24,510 nucleotides of DNA from a virus. The stretch is from UHGV virus genome UHGV-0063983, one strand, 5' to 3'. Below, piece by piece: positions 4,889-12,554 of the stretch. A program made the position numbers and the translations under genes. Each line of letters begins with the position of its first letter. Positions within the stretch are counted from its first letter, which is position 1. The notes below the pieces were generated by a model that worked only from the letters and a program-made list of their open reading frames with translations, was not told the origin of the DNA and made no database searches.

Positions 4889-5742
4889 GCACCATCCTGA
4901 AATGGGCGGGAAATAAAACTGCCATAATGTCCGAACTGAAAAAACATCTTCCTGCTGGCCCGCGACTGGTTGAACCTTTCGCGGGTTCCTGTGCTGTGAT
5001 GATGGAGACGGATTATCCCAGCTATCTGGTTGCGGATATTAATCCTGATTTAATCAACCTCTATAAAAAGGTTGCCGCTGATTGTGAATCGTTTATATCT
5101 CGCGCCAGAGTTTTATTTGAGATCGCAAACAGGGAGGTGGCTTATTACAACATAAGGCAGGAGTTTAATTACTCAACTGAAATTACTGATTTCATGAAAG
5201 CGGTATATTTCCTGTATCTCAATCGTCACGGTTACCGTGGTTTATGTCGCTATAACAAGAGCGGGCATTTCAACATTCCCTACGGTAATTATAAAAATCC
5301 GTATTTCCCTGAAAAAGAAATTCGCGCATTTGCAGAAAAGGCCCAGCGAGCAACGTTTATCTGCGCCAGCTTTGATGAAACGCTGGCGATGTTGAAGGCG
5401 GGGGATGTGGTGTATTGCGATCCGCCGTATGACGGTACGTTTTCCGGCTATCACACTGACGGCTTCACTGAAGATGACCAGTATCACCTGGCATCTGTTC
5501 TTGAACATCGGTCATCAGAAGGACATCCGGTCATTGTTTCTAACAGTGACACATCCCTGATCCGTTCGCTGTATCGCAATTTTACTCACCACTACATCAA
5601 GGCAAAACGCAGCATCGGTGTGGCAGCTGGCGAGGGTAAATCAGCAACAGAAATCATTGCTGTTTCCGGGCCGCGCTGCTGGGTGGGATTTGATTATTCG
5701 CGTGGCGTGGATAGTTCTGCCGTGTACGGAGTACGTGCATGA
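4885..5742 (+). CDS. dam: Dam-like DNA N6-adenine methyltransferase (orphan, phage-encoded)
   Basis: N-terminal ILKWAGNK...EPFAGSCAV (AdoMet-binding) and catalytic DPPY ([10 protein letters not shown]). GGAGG before the ATG at 4885; stop overlaps the gene A start (ATGA). Confidence 0.85.
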
Positions 5743-8153
5743 GTCATGCCGATATGAACAACTGCTGCGGCTTTAACGAAGCTGCCGCATCGTTCTCATG
5801 GAACAGCCCGAAAAAGGCCATTAACCCTTATCTGGACCCGGTGGAAGTTGCGCCGGTTTCTACGCTTTCAAACCTGATCACTCTGTACGCTGCCGATAAC
5901 GAGCAGGAACAGCTGCGCCGTGAGGCGCTGAGTGATCAGGTCTGGGAGCGTTATTTCTTTAATGAATCCCGTGATCCTGTCCAGCGCGAAATGGAACAGG
6001 ATAAGCTCATTAGTCGGGCAAAGCTGGCGCATGAGCAGCAGCGTTTTAATCCGGATATGGTCATTCTGGCGGACGTCAACGCCCAGCCTTCCCATATCAG
6101 CAAGCCGCTGATGCAACGTATTGAATACTTCAGCAGCCTGGGCAGGCCAAAGTCTTATTCCCGCTATTTACGTGAGACGATTAAGCCATGTCTGGAACGA
6201 CTGGAGCATGTACGCGACAGTCAGCTATCTGCATCTTTTCGCTTTATGGCAAGCCATGAAGGGCTGGACGGCCTGCTGATCCTGCCTGAAATGAGTCAGG
6301 ATCAGGTGAAACGCCTGTCCACCCTGGTAGCTGCGCATATGAGTATGTGCCTTGATGCCGCTTGTGGCGATTTGTATGCCACCGATGACGTTAAGCCAGA
6401 AGAAATCCGCAATACATGGGAAAGGGTGGCAGCGGAAACCCTGCGTCTGGATGTCATCCCGCCTGCGTTTGAGCAACTCCGTCGGAAAAGAAACCGCCGT
6501 AAACCCGTGCCCTATGAACTCATTCCGGGTTCGCTGGCGCGTATGTTGTGCGCCGACTGGTGGTATCGGAAATTATGGAAGATGCGTTGCGAATGGCGGG
6601 AAGAGCAGTTGCGTGCAGTCTGCCTTGTCAGCAAAAAAGCATCTCCTTATGTCAGCTATGAAGCCGTGATGCATAAACGTGAGCAGCGCCGTAAGTCGCT
6701 GGAGTTTTTCCGTTCTCATGAACTGGTGAACGAAGACGGCGACACGCTGGACATGGAGGATGTGGTAAACGCCAGCAGCAGCAACCCAGCGCATCGCCGC
6801 AATGAGATGATGGCCTGTGTTAAAGGTCTGGAGCTTATCGCGGAAATGCGCGGTGACTGCGCCGTTTTCTACACCATCACTTGTCCGTCACGTTTCCATT
6901 CCACGCTAAATAACGGCAGGCCCAACCCAACCTGGACAAATGCGACGGTAAGACAAAGCAGTGATTATCTGGTCGGCATGTTTGCTGCATTTCGTAAGGC
7001 GATGCACAAAGCCGGATTGCGGTGGTATGGCGTGCGGGTGGCTGAGCCGCATCATGACGGTACAGTTCACTGGCACCTGTTGTGTTTTATGCGCAAAAAA
7101 GACCGCCGCACCATCACTGCATTACTGCGTAAGTTTGCCATCCGTGAAGACCGCGAGGAGCTGGGCAATAACACTGGGCCGCGCTTTAAGTCTGAGTTGA
7201 TTAACCCGCGCAAAGGTACGCCAACAAGCTACATCGCGAAATACATCAGTAAGAACATTGACGGGCGTGGTCTGGCTGGCGAGATCAGCAAGGAAACGGG
7301 GAAATCCCTGCGTGATAATGCTGAATACGTTAATGCCTGGGCGTCTCTGCATCGTGTTCAGCAATTCCGCTTCTTTGGCATTCCGGGGCGTCAGGCTTAC
7401 CGTGAACTGCGATTGCTGGCTGGTCAGGCGGCAAGGCAACAGGGGGACAAAAAAGCAGGTGCGCCGGTACTGGATAACCCGCGCCTTGATGCCATTCTGG
7501 CTGCTGCTGATGCTGGTTGTTTTGCCACCTACATCATGAAGCAGGGTGGCGTACTGGTTCCCCGCAAATATCACCTCATCAGAACTGCTTATGAAATCAA
7601 CGAAGAGCCGACCGCCTATGGCGATCACGGCATTCGTATTTATGGCATCTGGTCACCTATTGCAGAGGGCAAGATCTGCACTCATGCCGTGAAGTGGAAA
7701 ATGGTTCGTAAGGCCGTTGACGTTCAGGAGGCGGCAGCCGACCAGGGCGCTTGCGCCCCTTGGACTCGTGGCAATAACTGTCCCCTTGCTGAAAATTTGA
7801 ACCAGCAGGAGAAAGATAAATCAGCTGATGGGGACACCAGAACGGACATTACCTGCATGGATGACAAGGAGTTGCACGATTATCTGCACAGTTTGAGCAA
7901 AAAAGAGCGCCGGGAACTGGCTGCAAGGTTACGCCTGGCTAAGCCGAAACGGCGTAAAGACTACAAACAGCGAATTACAGATCATCAGCGACAACAGCTC
8001 GTCTATGAGCTGAATTCCAGAGGATTTGATGGTAGCGAGAAAGAGGTCGATTTACTCCTTCGCGGCGGCAGTATTCCGTCAGGAGCAGGCCTGCGTATCT
8101 TCTATCGGAACCAGCGTTTGCAGGAAGATGACAAGTGGCGGAACCTGTATTAA
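5739..8153 (+). CDS. A: P2/186 gene A rolling-circle replication initiator
   Basis: 804 aa, with an HUH-like motif ([15 protein letters not shown]) and a catalytic tyrosine pair ([10 protein letters not shown]) typical of P2 gpA-family initiators; sits after the early genes and before the accessory region. Confidence 0.9.
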
Positions 8154-8245
8154 TTACGCGGGTTAACAATTCGTGCTCTTAATAATACCAGGCATATCAG
8201 GCTGATGAACGTAAAAAAACGTTTTACATCAGTAAGATTATTATA

Positions 8246-8265
8246 TACTGTAAATATAAACAGTG
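8246..8265. promoter_or_regulatory. LexA (SOS) box overlapping a putative promoter -10
   Basis: taCTGTaaatataaACAGtg fits the CTGT-N8-ACAG LexA consensus with an AT-rich spacer; overlaps a TATACT -10-like hexamer (8244-8249), about 40 nt upstream of the small ORF at 8307. Confidence 0.6.
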
Positions 8266-8306
8266 GTTATGTATACAGTGTTGCTTGTGGTGTCATAGGA
8301 GGAAAG

Positions 8307-8495
8307 ATGCAGGACTATTTTTTGGAGTCTTTGAAGCTCCAGCGCATTGATTTTTTTCTTAAGCTTGTAGCGGCCAGTGAGTGTAGTGATGAAGAGAAGA
8401 GACTGGCTATCCAGTGGGTTTCTGAGCTGACTGACGAGTTGATGGCGAAAATTCGTAACTATGAATACAGCCGTACAATGGACGCTACCAGCTAG
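8307..8495 (+). CDS. Small hypothetical protein (62 aa) downstream of the LexA box; possible N-terminal part of a Tum-like antirepressor
   Basis: ATG at 8307 preceded by AGGAGG. The ORF-track start at 8205 is an upstream extension that would overlap the LexA box. Confidence 0.4.
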   Translation: MQDYFLESLKLQRIDFFLKLVAASECSDEEKRLAIQWVSELTDELMAKIRNYEYSRTMDATS

Positions 8496-8505
8496 GGGAA
8501 AACCT

Positions 8506-8691
8506 ATGCGCATTGAAACAATGATCGATAAAGAGCAGTAAATTAGCTAGGCGCTGTTAGAAGCCGTTGAATCCGAGCTTTACCGCAACCTGCAGCCTAT
8601 CTATCCAAAGACAGCAATCCGCATTCGTAAAGGTTCGGCAAACGGCGTTGAGCTGAGCGGCTTAAAACTTGATGAAGACAAAAGCGAGTGA
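8506..8691 (+). pseudogene. DinI-family gene disrupted by two in-frame stops
   Basis: Frame from ATG 8506 reads MRIETMIDKEQ*IS*ALLEAVESELYRNLQPIYPKTAIRIRKGSANGVELSGLKLDEDKSE. The MRIE start and the ELxRxxQ / VxxR pattern resemble DinI (MRIEVTIAKT...AGELSRRIQYAF...VSVRY...). TAA and TAG interrupt at codons 12 and 15. Confidence 0.5.
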
Positions 8692-8758
8692 TGGAAATCA
8701 TGCAGCATGTTTGGGAAGATGAGAGCTGCTTTTAAATATCGATTTAGGGGAAAATCTC

Positions 8759-8784
8759 AACCTCATGCAGTATCGCATGAGGTT
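8759..8784 (+). terminator. Perfect 10-bp hairpin, possible terminator or regulatory element between the SOS module and the cargo operon
   Basis: aacctcatgc-agtatc-gcatgaggtt: exact inverted repeat with a 6-nt loop; the downstream T-run is weak (cattta). Confidence 0.3.
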
Positions 8785-8951
8785 CATTTAGGCGAAATTT
8801 GTGGGAATTTTCTACAAGTTTATGAGCGAATAATTCATTTTTGATGTGTTAATTTCTTAACAATTTGGGCTTTAATTCTTGTAAAGCAAGACATAACGTT
8901 TATGATTGATAAATATAAAAAATCTGAATAGGCAGGAAAGGAGTTTAACTC

Positions 8952-9467
8952 ATGCCTGGGTTAGAAAATGCACAGCAAAATCAAGTTGATGAAATCGTTC
9001 CAGCAATGCAAATCGCATTGGTCGAAGAAGATATAGAACAACCCATCGCTGCCGAATACCTATACAGCCAGCATATAAGTGCGCTTGTGCCACAATGCCC
9101 TCCTGCCGAAGCGACAGAGTGCGATAGAGAATGCTGGCGTTTTACACTGAATCCTATAAGTCACAACTGCTTTTGGCCTCCAAAAAGAAGATCACCGCAG
9201 CGAATTGCTTCCGACGATGCGGAGGAGTGTTCTATGTGGGCGTTGTCTATGTATGAATCAGAGGCCCAGGCTACAAGAGCCTATACCATGTTAGCGAAGA
9301 AGATGAAAAATATCAGAAAAGCTATTGGTGATCACCTTGCTGTGGGTTCAGTAACCTGTAGTGATGGTAAATGTATGCCTGCTAGCAGAACCGGTCACTT
9401 TGATTTTCATCCTTATGTGGATGCGGATTTCGTTAACGGGTTCCAAGTAATACGAGCATTACCATGA
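8952..9467 (+). CDS. Hypothetical protein, 171 aa (first gene of the accessory operon)
   Basis: ATG at 8952 preceded by AGGAGT at good spacing; AT-rich coding region; no motif I recognise; stop overlaps the next gene start (ATGA). Confidence 0.65.
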   Translation: MPGLENAQQNQVDEIVPAMQIALVEEDIEQPIAAEYLYSQHISALVPQCPPAEATECDRECWRFTLNPISHNCFWPPKRRSPQRIASDDAEECSMWALSMYESEAQATRAYTMLAKKMKNIRKAIGDHLAVGSVTCSDGKCMPASRTGHFDFHPYVDADFVNGFQVIRALP

Positions 9468-10555
9468 TAAAATTAGATGCTAGAAGAATAAATGCGTCAA
9501 CTGTCGGAGATTATTCTTGGTACTCTGACCTCGTATATTTCGATGGTCCCCTAATTTGCTTGTTTAGAGGAAGCGGATATAAAGATGCTCTTTATGTCTG
9601 GCTTGATAATTCGGAGCGTGCCAATCGTTGGTGCTTGATTCCAGTATCAAGATCTACTTTGGACTCTTATCTTAACCAAAGAATGAGTTTAAGGGAGATT
9701 ATACAATCGAGCGAATATACATATATCTGCGATCATTTTGCGAAAACCGGAAGGAAGCACTACAACATTTTGCACGTTGATAGTTTTCCTGAGGAGTATA
9801 TGCCTGATGAAGATTCATATTTGTATGAAGAAATATGTACTGATGATGCATTGCTGTTGAAGCAGGAGCGCACCTCCAGTTATATGCTTGGATTAGATAA
9901 TCAGTTGTTTATAAATGATTTATCTGTAATACCAAAAATTTTCGAACAGCTCTATTCTTTCCATTACGGATTGGCTCATTTAGGACGGTTGTCGATTAGA
10001 AATACCATGTTGCGTCTGATGGGGAATTGGACGGGTGGAATATCAGCAGTAAATATATTTTCAGGGTTGAAAAATGTTATTCCTGTTTTGCATCGACCAG
10101 AGATTAGCTCTCTCCAATACAATTCACCGGGGCATATTGAGTTAAATTTACTTCCTGATTTGGCTCAAAGTGTTCAAGATGCATCTATTCGTGTGAAAAG
10201 TGAGCTAGTTTATGACCGTCTGGAGAAAATGTATAAAAATACATATGCATACTTCAAGGATAATGGGCTGTCAGGCTTTGATGAAGACGGCGGCATTGAA
10301 ATTAGAAATATCGATAGTGATACCACCGAAAACCTACGTAAACGCGTAAGAATATTTTTTAGATGTTTGGGGTGGTCAAGTTATCAAGCTCAGTTTGATC
10401 TGATCGGTGCCCATCCTCTACAACAATTACGTGCTGTGATGGCCTACTACAGGCGGCTCAAAATCTTGCGTGAATACATTGTCTCCGAGAAGCTTTTTGT
10501 TGGTCAGTCTCGGGTGTTACAGCAGCCACAAATTGCTCTGCCTCCTGAGGATTAG
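9464..10555 (+). CDS. Hypothetical protein, 363 aa (second gene of the accessory operon)
   Basis: Long intact ORF, translationally coupled to the upstream gene; AT-rich; no Walker A or other obvious nuclease or ATPase motif found by eye. Confidence 0.7.
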   Translation: MIKLDARRINASTVGDYSWYSDLVYFDGPLICLFRGSGYKDALYVWLDNSERANRWCLIPVSRSTLDSYLNQRMSLREIIQSSEYTYICDHFAKTGRKHYNILHVDSFPEEYMPDEDSYLYEEICTDDALLLKQERTSSYMLGLDNQLFINDLSVIPKIFEQLYSFHYGLAHLGRLSIRNTMLRLMGNWTGGISAVNIFSGLKNVIPVLHRPEISSLQYNSPGHIELNLLPDLAQSVQDASIRVKSELVYDRLEKMYKNTYAYFKDNGLSGFDEDGGIEIRNIDSDTTENLRKRVRIFFRCLGWSSYQAQFDLIGAHPLQQLRAVMAYYRRLKILREYIVSEKLFVGQSRVLQQPQIALPPED

Positions 10556-10680
10556 ATTCTGCGTTATGCTGCATGAATCCGCATGATCGTTTGAGGATCG
10601 TTCTAGATGAGGCCCGTCAGCAATGGCGGGCTTTTGCTAATGTCATGCTGGCGCATGAAAACCACTACATAAAGCGGGCA

Positions 10681-10699
10681 GGCGTGGCGGGGATACGAG
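10681..10699. other. Putative cos (cohesive end) site of the P2/186 type
   Basis: GGCGTGGCGGGGATACGAG: the first 13 nt match my recollection of the 186 cos sequence (GGCGTGGCGGGGAAAGCAT; P2 is GGCGAGGCGGGGAAAGCAC). It lies in a 254-bp non-coding gap on the cos-proximal side of Q. Confidence 0.35.
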
Positions 10700-10809
10700 C
10701 GCGCGCTCATGGTTGAATTAATGAAATTATGGTGTTAAATAGGCTAGCTTTTTAAGTCGTGAATATTCAATTTTTCAACTCATTTTTTTCATAGGGAGGA
10801 GCAATTGAC

Positions 10810-11508
10810 ATGGTTATGTTAGTGGATGACTGTCCACGATGTGGATCACAAAAAATAGCGTTTGATGTTAATGGGCTGAATTGCACTAGGGTTTACAATG
10901 CATTGGGCGGGGGTAAAACATACGAATACGAGGTCTATTGTGTTTGCCGAGAGTGTCATAAAACGACAATGTTTCTTTGCAGACCTTTAACGAAAAATAA
11001 AACTTTAGATGGCTATAATTGGGAAAGTGGAATATTCGGCTTAAAGGAAGTTGCAGAGGTTGTTAGGCCTATATCACCGGCAGACTTAGCAGTAGAGGAG
11101 CCGCCAGAGTTCTTACCTGAGCATATCAATAGTGCATATGAGGAAGGGGCGAAATGTTTGGCTATTGGTTGTTATAATGCAGCAGCAACCATGTTTAGGC
11201 TTTGCCTTGATTATGCAACAAAAGGACTTCTTCCTGATGGGGAGCAAGGGCCTGCGCAAAAAATAAGGAGAAGCCTAGGGTTAAGAATGGATTGGTTATT
11301 TGATAATCATCTATTGCCTGAAGCTTTAAGGGAACTAGCTGAATGCGTTAAAGATGACGGAAATGATGGAGCGCATGAAGGTATTTTGGATAAAGCTGCT
11401 GCTGAGGATCTTGAAGATTTTACCTATCTTTTTTTAGAACGGCTTTACACTGAACCTCAACGCCTTATCGAAGCCAAGACAAGGCGTGAACAAAGAAGAA
11501 ACAAATAA
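10810..11508 (+). CDS. Zinc-ribbon protein with C-terminal DUF4145-like helical domain (232 aa)
   Basis: N-terminal CPRCGSQK...CVCRECHK (CxxC...CxxC zinc ribbon). C-terminal region (AAATMFRLCLDYATKGLL...LRELAECVKDDGNDGAHEGILD) resembles the [RK]-x2-GN-x2-AH signature I associate with DUF4145. GGGAGGA ribosome-binding site; AT-rich. Confidence 0.65.
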   Translation: MVMLVDDCPRCGSQKIAFDVNGLNCTRVYNALGGGKTYEYEVYCVCRECHKTTMFLCRPLTKNKTLDGYNWESGIFGLKEVAEVVRPISPADLAVEEPPEFLPEHINSAYEEGAKCLAIGCYNAAATMFRLCLDYATKGLLPDGEQGPAQKIRRSLGLRMDWLFDNHLLPEALRELAECVKDDGNDGAHEGILDKAAAEDLEDFTYLFLERLYTEPQRLIEAKTRREQRRNK

Positions 11509-11516
11509 GTTCGGAA

Positions 11517-12554
11517 TTATTCTTCTGAAAGAATATAGGGCGTAAATTTAATCACTTCTTCGCCCAGCCAGTCGTTCAGCTCTTGTAGCCTTTTTTGCAA
11601 GGGCGTTAATTCATTACGTACAAATACGCGACTGGCCTTCTCCACATCCCCAAAACCCCCAACATTATTCGGCAAAATTCCCATCATCTGGGGCGGTACG
11701 CGGTGCGCCGCCATCATGTCATCACGGCTGACGTTCTTGATGTTCAGAAATTCATCCTTCGCTGCGACTTCTGACAACGGGATAATCTGAAGTCCGTCTT
11801 TTTTACCATTAGGCGAGTACATAAACAGATTGCGGAAGTTACCCGGACCTTTGGCGCTTTTCATTGCGTTGCGGAGGTTGTTCACATCCTCCTGGTTCTG
11901 CGCGGCATCGGTCATATACATGATGAAGCCAGCATGACTGCCATTGATGTAATATTTACGGCGGAACAGCGTGGCGGACTCGTTGAGCAGGGCTGACGGA
12001 ATGGCAGAAAGATAACCGGGCAGGCCGTAGATCTCCTGGTTGATGTCCGGTTCTATCAGATGAAAGATGCAGCCTTTCGTGAACTGATACGGCTGCGTGG
12101 TCATGCCGTATTGCACAAACCAGTAGGTATCCAGGTCTAAACCGCGTCGGGTGTATTTTGCCAGCGCAGGTTCAAGGGTGATAACTTCACCGAAGCGGTT
12201 CGTGCGTTTCTCCAGGTAGGCGTTACCAAATACCAGATAGTCCTGCACAAAACGTGAAAAAGCCTGCTGGCTGAGCAGCGGGTGAGGGATGTAGGTGCTG
12301 GTCAGAATGTTGCATTTCACCGCAATCGGTGAGCTGTGATGCACGGCGGCGCGGAAGGTTCGCGCCAGTCCGTCGAAACTCACAGGCGGCTCATACCAGC
12401 GATCCATCTGTACGCATTCCACATAGTCCAGCAGTTCACGGCGGTCCAGAACAGGAACGGGATCGCCAAAGCTGAATGCTTCGGCTGAAGTTTGGCTTTT
12501 ATGCTGGATCTGGTTCGTCGACGCAGCGCGGTTCTTCTTACTCTTTCCCATCAA
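11517..12554 (-). CDS. Q: Portal protein (P2 gpQ)
   Basis: 345 aa, immediately downstream of and overlapping (ATGA) the large terminase on the minus strand, matching P2 gene order and gpQ size. Confidence 0.85.
   Translation of the reverse strand: MMGKSKKNRAASTNQIQHKSQTSAEAFSFGDPVPVLDRRELLDYVECVQMDRWYEPPVSFDGLARTFRAAVHHSSPIAVKCNILTSTYIPHPLLSQQAFSRFVQDYLVFGNAYLEKRTNRFGEVITLEPALAKYTRRGLDLDTYWFVQYGMTTQPYQFTKGCIFHLIEPDINQEIYGLPGYLSAIPSALLNESATLFRRKYYINGSHAGFIMYMTDAAQNQEDVNNLRNAMKSAKGPGNFRNLFMYSPNGKKDGLQIIPLSEVAAKDEFLNIKNVSRDDMMAAHRVPPQMMGILPNNVGGFGDVEKASRVFVRNELTPLQKRLQELNDWLGEEVIKFTPYILSEE

Follow-up and report, generated by a model that had tools for sequence, protein, structure and literature searches.

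A zinc-ribbon and HEPN (DUF4145) gene beside cos in a P2-family prophage: a RAZR-like candidate for single-gene defence

What is the role of a gene that sits between the cohesive-end site (cos) and the portal gene of a P2-family prophage? The question is raised by virus genome UHGV-0063983, a stretch of 24,510 nucleotides that is referred to as the window throughout, in which a plus-strand coding sequence at 10810..11508 encodes a 232-amino-acid protein with an N-terminal Cys4 zinc ribbon and a C-terminal DUF4145/HEPN domain. From the letters alone, a first-pass annotation had described it as stand-alone cargo with a link to defence. The analysis reported here indicates that the gene is likely to act in defence or abortive infection, and it favours, with somewhat less assurance, a single-protein anti-phage sensor-effector resembling RAZR, carried as accessory cargo in the P2 gpA-gpQ hotspot and expressed in lysogeny. 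Activation by a phage ring is put forward as a tentative mechanism. Judged by its relatives, the gene most likely represents a variant of a known defence type rather than a new kind of system.

A two-domain protein with a RAZR-related HEPN domain

The open reading frame (ORF) call reproduced the 232-amino-acid frame proposed at this position. It starts with ATG and is preceded, 8 nucleotides (nt) upstream, by the Shine-Dalgarno sequence GGGAGGAG (10794-10801, plus strand; read directly from the sequence), the ribosome-binding site of its own with which the gene had been credited. Full-length homologues were found in the hundreds, with E values down to 1e-157, and the ratio of nonsynonymous to synonymous divergence (dN/dS) was well under 1 wherever dS was measurable, that is, unsaturated; because of these two results, the frame is taken to be a real gene and not a chance ORF. 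In Escherichia phage Cartapus, which E. coli LF82 carries as a P2-like prophage, coding sequence 1 (CARTA_1, at 162-860) is 99.6% identical and follows directly on the annotated cos. The GC content across the gene is 0.41-0.43 (~42% overall), compared with 0.50-0.64 in the late genes to its right, in keeping with the AT richness noted at first pass. PHROG 1305 matched the full length of the protein (E = 1.1e-52) and is the phage-encoded part of the same family; its functional label, "DNA binding protein," is an unverified annotation.

Both domains that had been described were recovered. The zinc ribbon (10831..10956, plus strand) consists of a first knuckle, C8-P-R-C11 (nt 10831-10842), and a second, C46-R-E-C49 (nt 10945-10956); the four cysteines are invariant in a narrow alignment of 30 homologues (A1) and in a broader alignment that includes distant relatives (A2), and weak profile matches to the zinc ribbons of RPB9 and RPA12 were obtained. 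An AlphaFold2 (AF2) model built on the 30 homologues, with a mean predicted local distance difference test score (pLDDT) of 85, has an N-terminal beta region (strands at residues 3-6, 16-30, 36-46, and 52-59, with the cysteine pairs in the loops that join them), followed towards the C terminus by a helical domain that spans residues 104-231 and has the alpha-helical HEPN fold. Within this domain, residues 114-203 (11149..11418, plus strand) matched Pfam DUF4145 (PF13643) at 30.5 bits (E = 4e-7), above the gathering cut-off of 23.1, which bears out the family assignment offered before any database search; RAZR homologues score 50-54 bits on the same model. The K-x2-GN-x2-AH motif that had been read in this domain is present as the putative active-site motif K181-D-D-G-N-D-G-A-H189 (11350..11376, plus strand). 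K181, N185, and H189 are invariant in the 30 homologues, and N185 and H189 are also invariant among more distant homologues. The lysine of the motif is nevertheless not the family norm, since it replaces the catalytic arginine of DUF4145/RAZR.

The proposed association with defence led to a single system. PADLOC returned one match for the window protein, PD-T7-4, at 25.9 bits (E = 1.4e-6). PD-T7-4 was found by functional selection as a single "Zn finger-HEPN" gene (Vassallo et al. 2022, PMC9519451) and was renamed RAZR in 2026 as a validated zinc-finger-HEPN abortive-infection RNase (Zhang et al., Nature 2026, PMC13017515). RAZR joins a Cys4 zinc-finger domain at its N terminus to a DUF4145/HEPN RNase at its C terminus, and it is non-toxic alone; on infection, 24 copies assemble around phage rings (the portals of T7, T3, and SECphi18 or the Erf-like Gp77), and the activated protein cleaves RNA non-specifically, so that infection is aborted (PMC13017515). 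The zinc-finger domain is its most variable part and determines specificity (PMC13017515). Searches of PDB sequences with the single sequence and with the narrow A1 profile gave no match, and only the broader A2 profile reached RAZR, matching chain 9y9c_OA (PDB 9Y9C; reference protein RRL46918.1 of E. coli UMB1727) with an E value of 3.6e-6. In that alignment K181, N185, and H189 correspond to RAZR R146, N150, and H154, and R130 corresponds to R105. BLASTP aligned the window protein with RAZR at 27% identity over 134 residues (E = 1e-5). Distant plasmid and phage homologues (Burkholderia, Vibrio, Corynebacterium, Stx phages, and Gordonia phage Meyran) were tried as bridges to PD-T7-4 and gave weak or no match. 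NCBIfam holds no model for the family of the window protein and none for RAZR.

The Arg...His motif that typifies HEPN proteins (Rx4-6H; R-x7-H in DUF4145/RAZR) is altered in the window protein, with K181 in the arginine position. Both the hidden Markov model (HMM) alignment to 9y9c_OA and BLASTP place H189 opposite H154 and K181, a conservative replacement, opposite R146, a correspondence at the level of sequence only. Lysine occupies this position in all 30 aligned homologues. Other family members have Lys (68), Arg (27), Gln (4), or His (2). The charge is kept, with Lys or Arg in ~95% of the fetched members. Arginine is found in more distant homologues, such as Stx-phage POCJ13 gp20, Burkholderia phage phi644-2, and Gordonia phage Meyran gp1.

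The family is large, with 1,909 clusters at 50% identity at E <= 1e-3 and 229 at E <= 1e-30, and its full-length members (42-53% identity) come from Pseudomonadota, Nitrospirota, Omnitrophota, Planctomycetota, Verrucomicrobiota, and others. Its two halves diverge at different rates. Identity to the Serratia copy is 41% in the N-terminal half versus 73% in the HEPN half, and mean column entropy is 1.87 bits in the zinc ribbon, 2.31 bits in the linker, and 0.92 bits in the HEPN domain. Per-domain dN/dS was attempted; because dS was saturated for most pairs, only the contrast in dN between the domains was used, and dN was 0.13-0.36 in the N-terminal half versus 0.07-0.08 in the HEPN half, 2-5 times higher N-terminally. 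As far as these comparisons go, fast N-terminal and slow HEPN divergence is the pattern reported for the RAZR sensor domain.

Accessory cargo between cos and Q

The distribution of the gene is sporadic. Among 1,252 complete E. coli genomes matching the cos-portal stretch, 43 carry it (~97% are without it), and the same slot holds unrelated cargo in other P2-like phages: a 565-amino-acid protein in Fels-2, a TIR-domain protein in phage 500465-1, and an ATPase with a RloB-family protein in a Klebsiella phage. Because of this distribution and this unrelated cargo, one outcome that the first-pass annotation had named as fatal to its proposal, a conserved core or packaging gene, did not materialise. 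The P2 gpA-gpQ interval is a published defence hotspot that spans cos (Rousset et al. 2022, PMC9122126; "P2 defence hotspot #1" in Vassallo et al. 2022, PMC9519451), and the gene has the attributes of hotspot cargo: it lies between gpA and gpQ, it is beside cos, and it is present in some prophages only. Its product, WP_000245245, is listed as "DUF4145" in several arrangements in Table S5A of Rousset et al. (PMC9122126) and falls outside the set of systems cloned in that study. The "putative HEPN" that was cloned there from the P2 hotspot (pFR103) is a different protein.

The locus had also been called a second, independent cargo locus. Its independence was upheld: LF82 has the same gene right of cos and, left of cos, genes different from the PD-T4-10 A/B pair of the window, and the cargo on the two sides of cos therefore assorts independently. 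Its status as a second locus was not, because the slot lies inside the single published gpA-gpQ hotspot (PMC9122126, PMC9519451).

Expression was assessed from published RNA-seq of the 99.6% identical LF82 copy (CARTA_1, LF82_788; locus L097, 6246-6944; PMC9928086 S1 Table), which is not the window's own strain. In units of log2(fpkm+5), where fpkm is fragments per kilobase per million, CARTA_1 was at 4.65 and 4.71 in lysogeny broth (LB), at 7.0-7.6 in Dulbecco's modified Eagle's medium (DMEM), and at 9.2-9.6 inside macrophages, and the portal gene beside it was at 2.5-3.1 in all conditions. In LB the normalised counts were 25.6 versus 7.7 for the portal gene. Since CARTA_1 is expressed while the portal gene stays low, the LF82 copy appears to be transcribed from the prophage independently of the late genes. 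CARTA_47, the left-of-cos neighbour in LF82, shows the same rise from LB to macrophages, with late genes at background.

The gene travels alone, as had been proposed. Neighbour-ORF clustering over 80 genomic loci recovered no conserved neighbour except P2 Q and P in 5 loci, and the gene is therefore considered a single-gene unit. Those species-level genomes comprised 5 P2-like loci and 75 loci without P2 genes nearby. Among IMG/VR viral contigs, the gene and a P2-like Q meet tail-to-tail in 50 of 80 loci, mostly 14-48 bp apart, and this adjacency holds from 99.6% to 49% protein identity as Q drops from 98% to 62%; Dickeya and Serratia prophages have the same tail-to-tail arrangement. Portal adjacency was considered as a general property of the family and rejected. 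Phage copies outside the P2 group lie beside C5 methylases or tape-measure genes, for which reason portal adjacency is attributed to the P2 hotspot, and most chromosomal copies have no phage genes nearby. In three unrelated IMG/VR non-P2 contigs (L162, L176, and L156), the family member adjoins, and is convergent with, a C5 cytosine DNA methylase gene. Arg-type distant homologues occupy other moron positions: in the actinophage Meyran of Gordonia (L004, 94-783) it is gene 1, immediately following the cohesive end and preceding terminase, and in Stx phages, represented by Shigella phage POCJ13 (L002, 4040-4714), its neighbours are a Ren-like exclusion gene and a RelE/ParE pair.

Taken as a whole, the window represents a 186/Fels-2-like prophage (P2 family, Elveevirus) with the order host TetR gene, integrase, CI, CII, Fil, Dam methylase, gpA (5739-8153), cargo, cos, DUF4145 gene, Q, P, and late genes. 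The placement between cos and the portal gene was borne out. The cohesive-end 19-mer GGCGTGGCGGGGATACGAG (10681-10699, no strand assigned) is just left of the gene; it recurs unchanged in Cartapus, Fels-2, MLG42, and Klebsiella P2-like phages, with cargo and Q downstream of it in every case, and the Cartapus record annotates cos at bases 1-59. It lies within a conserved cos region (10565-10707) common to Fels-2, SopE-phi, and Yersinia and Klebsiella P2-like phages. Relatives that lack the gene cease to be similar at the end of this region (~10707), and the gene-specific upstream region (10708..10809, plus strand) must contain the gene's own promoter. A consensus scan upstream of the gene found no plus-strand promoter, and the region shows no conservation past close relatives; for these two reasons no promoter is named. 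A 47-amino-acid ORF (10573-10716, plus strand) runs across the cos core and is recorded as "hypothetical protein" in several P2-like phages, with no Pfam match; it is probably not a gene, because cos function would account for its conservation.

To the right, the portal gene Q (11517..12554, minus strand; Pfam Phage_portal) is convergent with the DUF4145 gene, and the stop codons are separated by 8 bp (11509-11516), exactly as first described. A terminator scan and RNA folding of positions 11495-11560 found no terminator hairpin in the 8-bp gap, and the one stem at the junction is weak and AT-rich and falls within the 3' end of Q. At the corresponding junction in distant P2-like loci (L010, L138, L143, and L148), a GC-rich hairpin forms a strong bidirectional terminator, which the E. 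coli lineage is without. Given the lack of a terminator in the gap, the convergent DUF4145-gene and Q transcripts probably overlap in the E. coli lineage.

To the left of cos lies separate cargo, the PD-T4-10 A/B system (8952..10555, plus strand; PADLOC E = 9.8e-76 and 2e-172), so that the prophage carries cargo on both sides of cos. PD-T4-10 is a validated toxin-antitoxin-type defence against T-even phages (PMC9519451). Its A (8952-9467) and B (9464-10555) genes overlap on the plus strand. Between gpA and this system, an AT-rich stretch of ~800 bp (8154-8951) is without the DinI-family gene present there in LF82, Fels-2, and other relatives and contains only a 96-amino-acid ORF (8205-8495) with no Pfam match. 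The cos-Q interval can itself carry more than one cargo gene: Serratia P2-like prophages (L010 and L011, 5347-5942) have HicA/HicB between cos and the DUF4145 gene, and in Enterobacter wuhouensis (L020, 5697-6798) an extra ~1.1 kb separates the DUF4145 gene from Q.

Weighing the explanations

We favour a defence function because of the homology to RAZR, the same architecture, the matching dynamics of the two domains, single-gene status, location among hotspot cargo, expression in lysogeny, and the charge kept at the arginine position. By analogy with RAZR, the fast-evolving Cys4 zinc ribbon would recognise a protein of an infecting phage (RAZR recognises large rings, for instance portal dodecamers or those of Erf-like type). 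Binding would rearrange oligomers of the protein such that paired HEPN domains form active RNase sites from K181, N185, and H189. Indiscriminate RNA cleavage would then stop translation and abort the infection, which would protect the lysogen population and hence the prophage.

Several results weigh against so close a parallel. The PD-T7-4 model scores the window protein at 25.9 bits and a 124-residue fragment of authentic RAZR at 220.6 bits (the fragment, most of the sequence, was recovered from the HMMER alignment to 9y9c_OA and checked on that model); membership of PD-T7-4 as modelled was rejected on these scores. An hhalign comparison of the two family alignments was weak (probability 19%, E = 1.2e-3), and the zinc-ribbon halves of the window protein and RAZR align at 5.3 bits, which is not significant. 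Because of these three results, the window protein, which shares the RAZR architecture and has a homologous HEPN domain, is placed in a separate family. The inter-domain region is ~25 residues longer than that of RAZR, with an extra strand, and the C-terminal helix differs. RAZR requires both R146 and H154 for defence (PMC13017515), and by alignment this essential arginine is a lysine in the window protein, as it is in 57 of 57 P2-borne copies. CARTA_1 expression in LB falls under the 5-fold cut-off for a moron used in the LF82 study. Finally, a portal-sensing effector in a phage that builds its own portal ring needs some means of self-tolerance. Given that portals can be sensed by RAZR-type proteins, one conceivable route, offered here as speculation, is for late P-Q transcription to silence the gene in antisense.

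A more elaborate version of this idea is one that we regard as doubtful. In it, the Lys-type KDDGNDGAH zinc-ribbon HEPN proteins would form a distinct and widespread sister family of RAZR (~1,900 clusters at 50% identity, many phyla), and the P2-like copies would have been kept tail-to-tail with Q over deep divergence because a suicide RNase that senses rings or portals has to be made compatible with construction of the phage's own portal. Loss of the terminator in the E. coli lineage would then let late P-Q transcription run antisense and silence the sensor gene just as the phage's own portal ring appears.

Four other explanations compete with the RAZR-like sensor-effector. The gene may encode an HEPN RNase that serves in defence and is not ring activated, its ribbon sensing some other phage protein, a nucleic acid, or a stress signal with no need of a 12- or 24-fold scaffold. 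This is unlikely but deserves serious attention: the zinc-ribbon halves of the family and of RAZR have no significant sequence similarity, the linker is longer and the two families are separable, and the LF82 copy is strongly induced in DMEM and macrophages without phage, which makes regulation by host physiology possible. The two-domain layout, size, and single-gene status nonetheless match RAZR, and a variable sensor half is what RAZR-type trigger recognition predicts. Expression, up ~30-fold in macrophages, would also suit a prophage-stabilising toxin or addiction-type module, or a host-physiology moron engaged, for example, in stress-induced RNA turnover during intracellular life, with anti-phage defence not primary; HEPN domains are common among toxin-antitoxin toxins (PMC3710099), and a HicAB pair lies beside the Serratia copies. 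We find this improbable, given that no antitoxin-like partner is conserved over the 80 loci, that RAZR alone is non-toxic (PMC13017515), and that the hotspot is dominated by defence systems (PMC9122126).

The lysine bears on a further alternative, a catalytically dead protein that only binds. It might, for example, act in anti-defence, as a decoy that joins the assemblies of a host RAZR-type system and poisons that system, or it might be a regulator that binds RNA or DNA. Replacement of the catalytic arginine in every P2-borne copy would fit such a protein, as would the loss of RAZR defence in R146A (PMC13017515) and the "DNA binding protein" label of PHROG 1305. That label is unverified, however, the substitution is conservative, either Lys or Arg occurs among close relatives, some of them chromosomal copies remote from any phage, and an invariant N185 and H189 are hard to reconcile with a dead site, so that a binding-only role is quite improbable. 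Almost no credence is given to a conserved packaging or head-assembly accessory factor of a P2 subgroup, tail-to-tail with Q in many phages. The persistence of Q adjacency in 50 of 80 IMG/VR loci over deep divergence of both proteins speaks for it; it is contradicted by the sporadic distribution of the gene (missing from ~97% of the E. coli genomes with the cos-portal stretch and likewise from Fels-2 and other P2-like relatives inspected, free of P2 genes nearby in 75 of 80 species-level loci, and beside methylases or tape-measure genes in other phages) and by its expression while the late genes are off.

The hotspot that contains the gene has been described before, the gene itself has a catalogue entry as "DUF4145," and its relative RAZR has a solved mechanism. 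If it is active, the RAZR principle of an immune RNase switched on by the geometry of phage assembly would extend to a second, much larger family, which differs in its sensor domain and in the Lys at the catalytic Arg position and which ranges from Enterobacteriaceae to Nitrospirota, Planctomycetota, and Omnitrophota. A defined system would likewise be added to the P2 hotspot catalogue, where the entry now reads just "DUF4145," and a question of self versus non-self would arise, namely, how a phage with a possible portal sensor beside its own portal gene avoids triggering it. Because PADLOC-type models match weakly (~26 bits), defence annotation may overlook this family.

Comparison with known systems

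The label of PHROG 1305 contrasts with the fold and motif of the window protein, which indicate an HEPN nuclease-type domain. Other defence proteins with DUF4145/HEPN domains, namely BxaP (PMC10799925), Ishtar (bioRxiv 10.64898/2026.07.06.735840), and the restriction endonuclease (REase) and helicase fusions (PMC3710099), share the DUF4145 HEPN effector and the association with defence. Their partner domains are different (HEAT-like, beta-rich C-terminal, REase, or helicase), they have other domain orders, and they have no N-terminal zinc ribbon. With other cargo of the P2 hotspot (old, tin, PD-T4-10, and others), the gene shares a gpA-gpQ position beside cos, patchy presence, and AT richness; it differs in being placed between cos and Q, leftmost in the packaged genome and convergent with Q, and in assorting independently of gpA-side cargo.

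RAZR differs from the window protein in several respects. The 27% identity between them is limited to the linker and HEPN domain, with no significant similarity in the zinc ribbon. The motif of the window protein is acidic (KDDGNDGAH, versus CRIVGNQAVH in RAZR), with Lys at the R146 position; its inter-domain segment is longer, and its C-terminal helix is long and basic. The window gene is found in the P2 slot between cos and Q; PD-T7-4, by contrast, "often overlaps an integrase gene." The likeness is nevertheless extensive. Both are single genes for proteins of ~210-230 amino acids with an N-terminal Cys4 ribbon and a C-terminal DUF4145/HEPN domain, their motifs are spaced alike (seven residues between the Arg/Lys position and His) with the N and H residues aligned, the N-terminal half is hypervariable and the HEPN half conserved, and both are found on mobile elements of Enterobacteriaceae.
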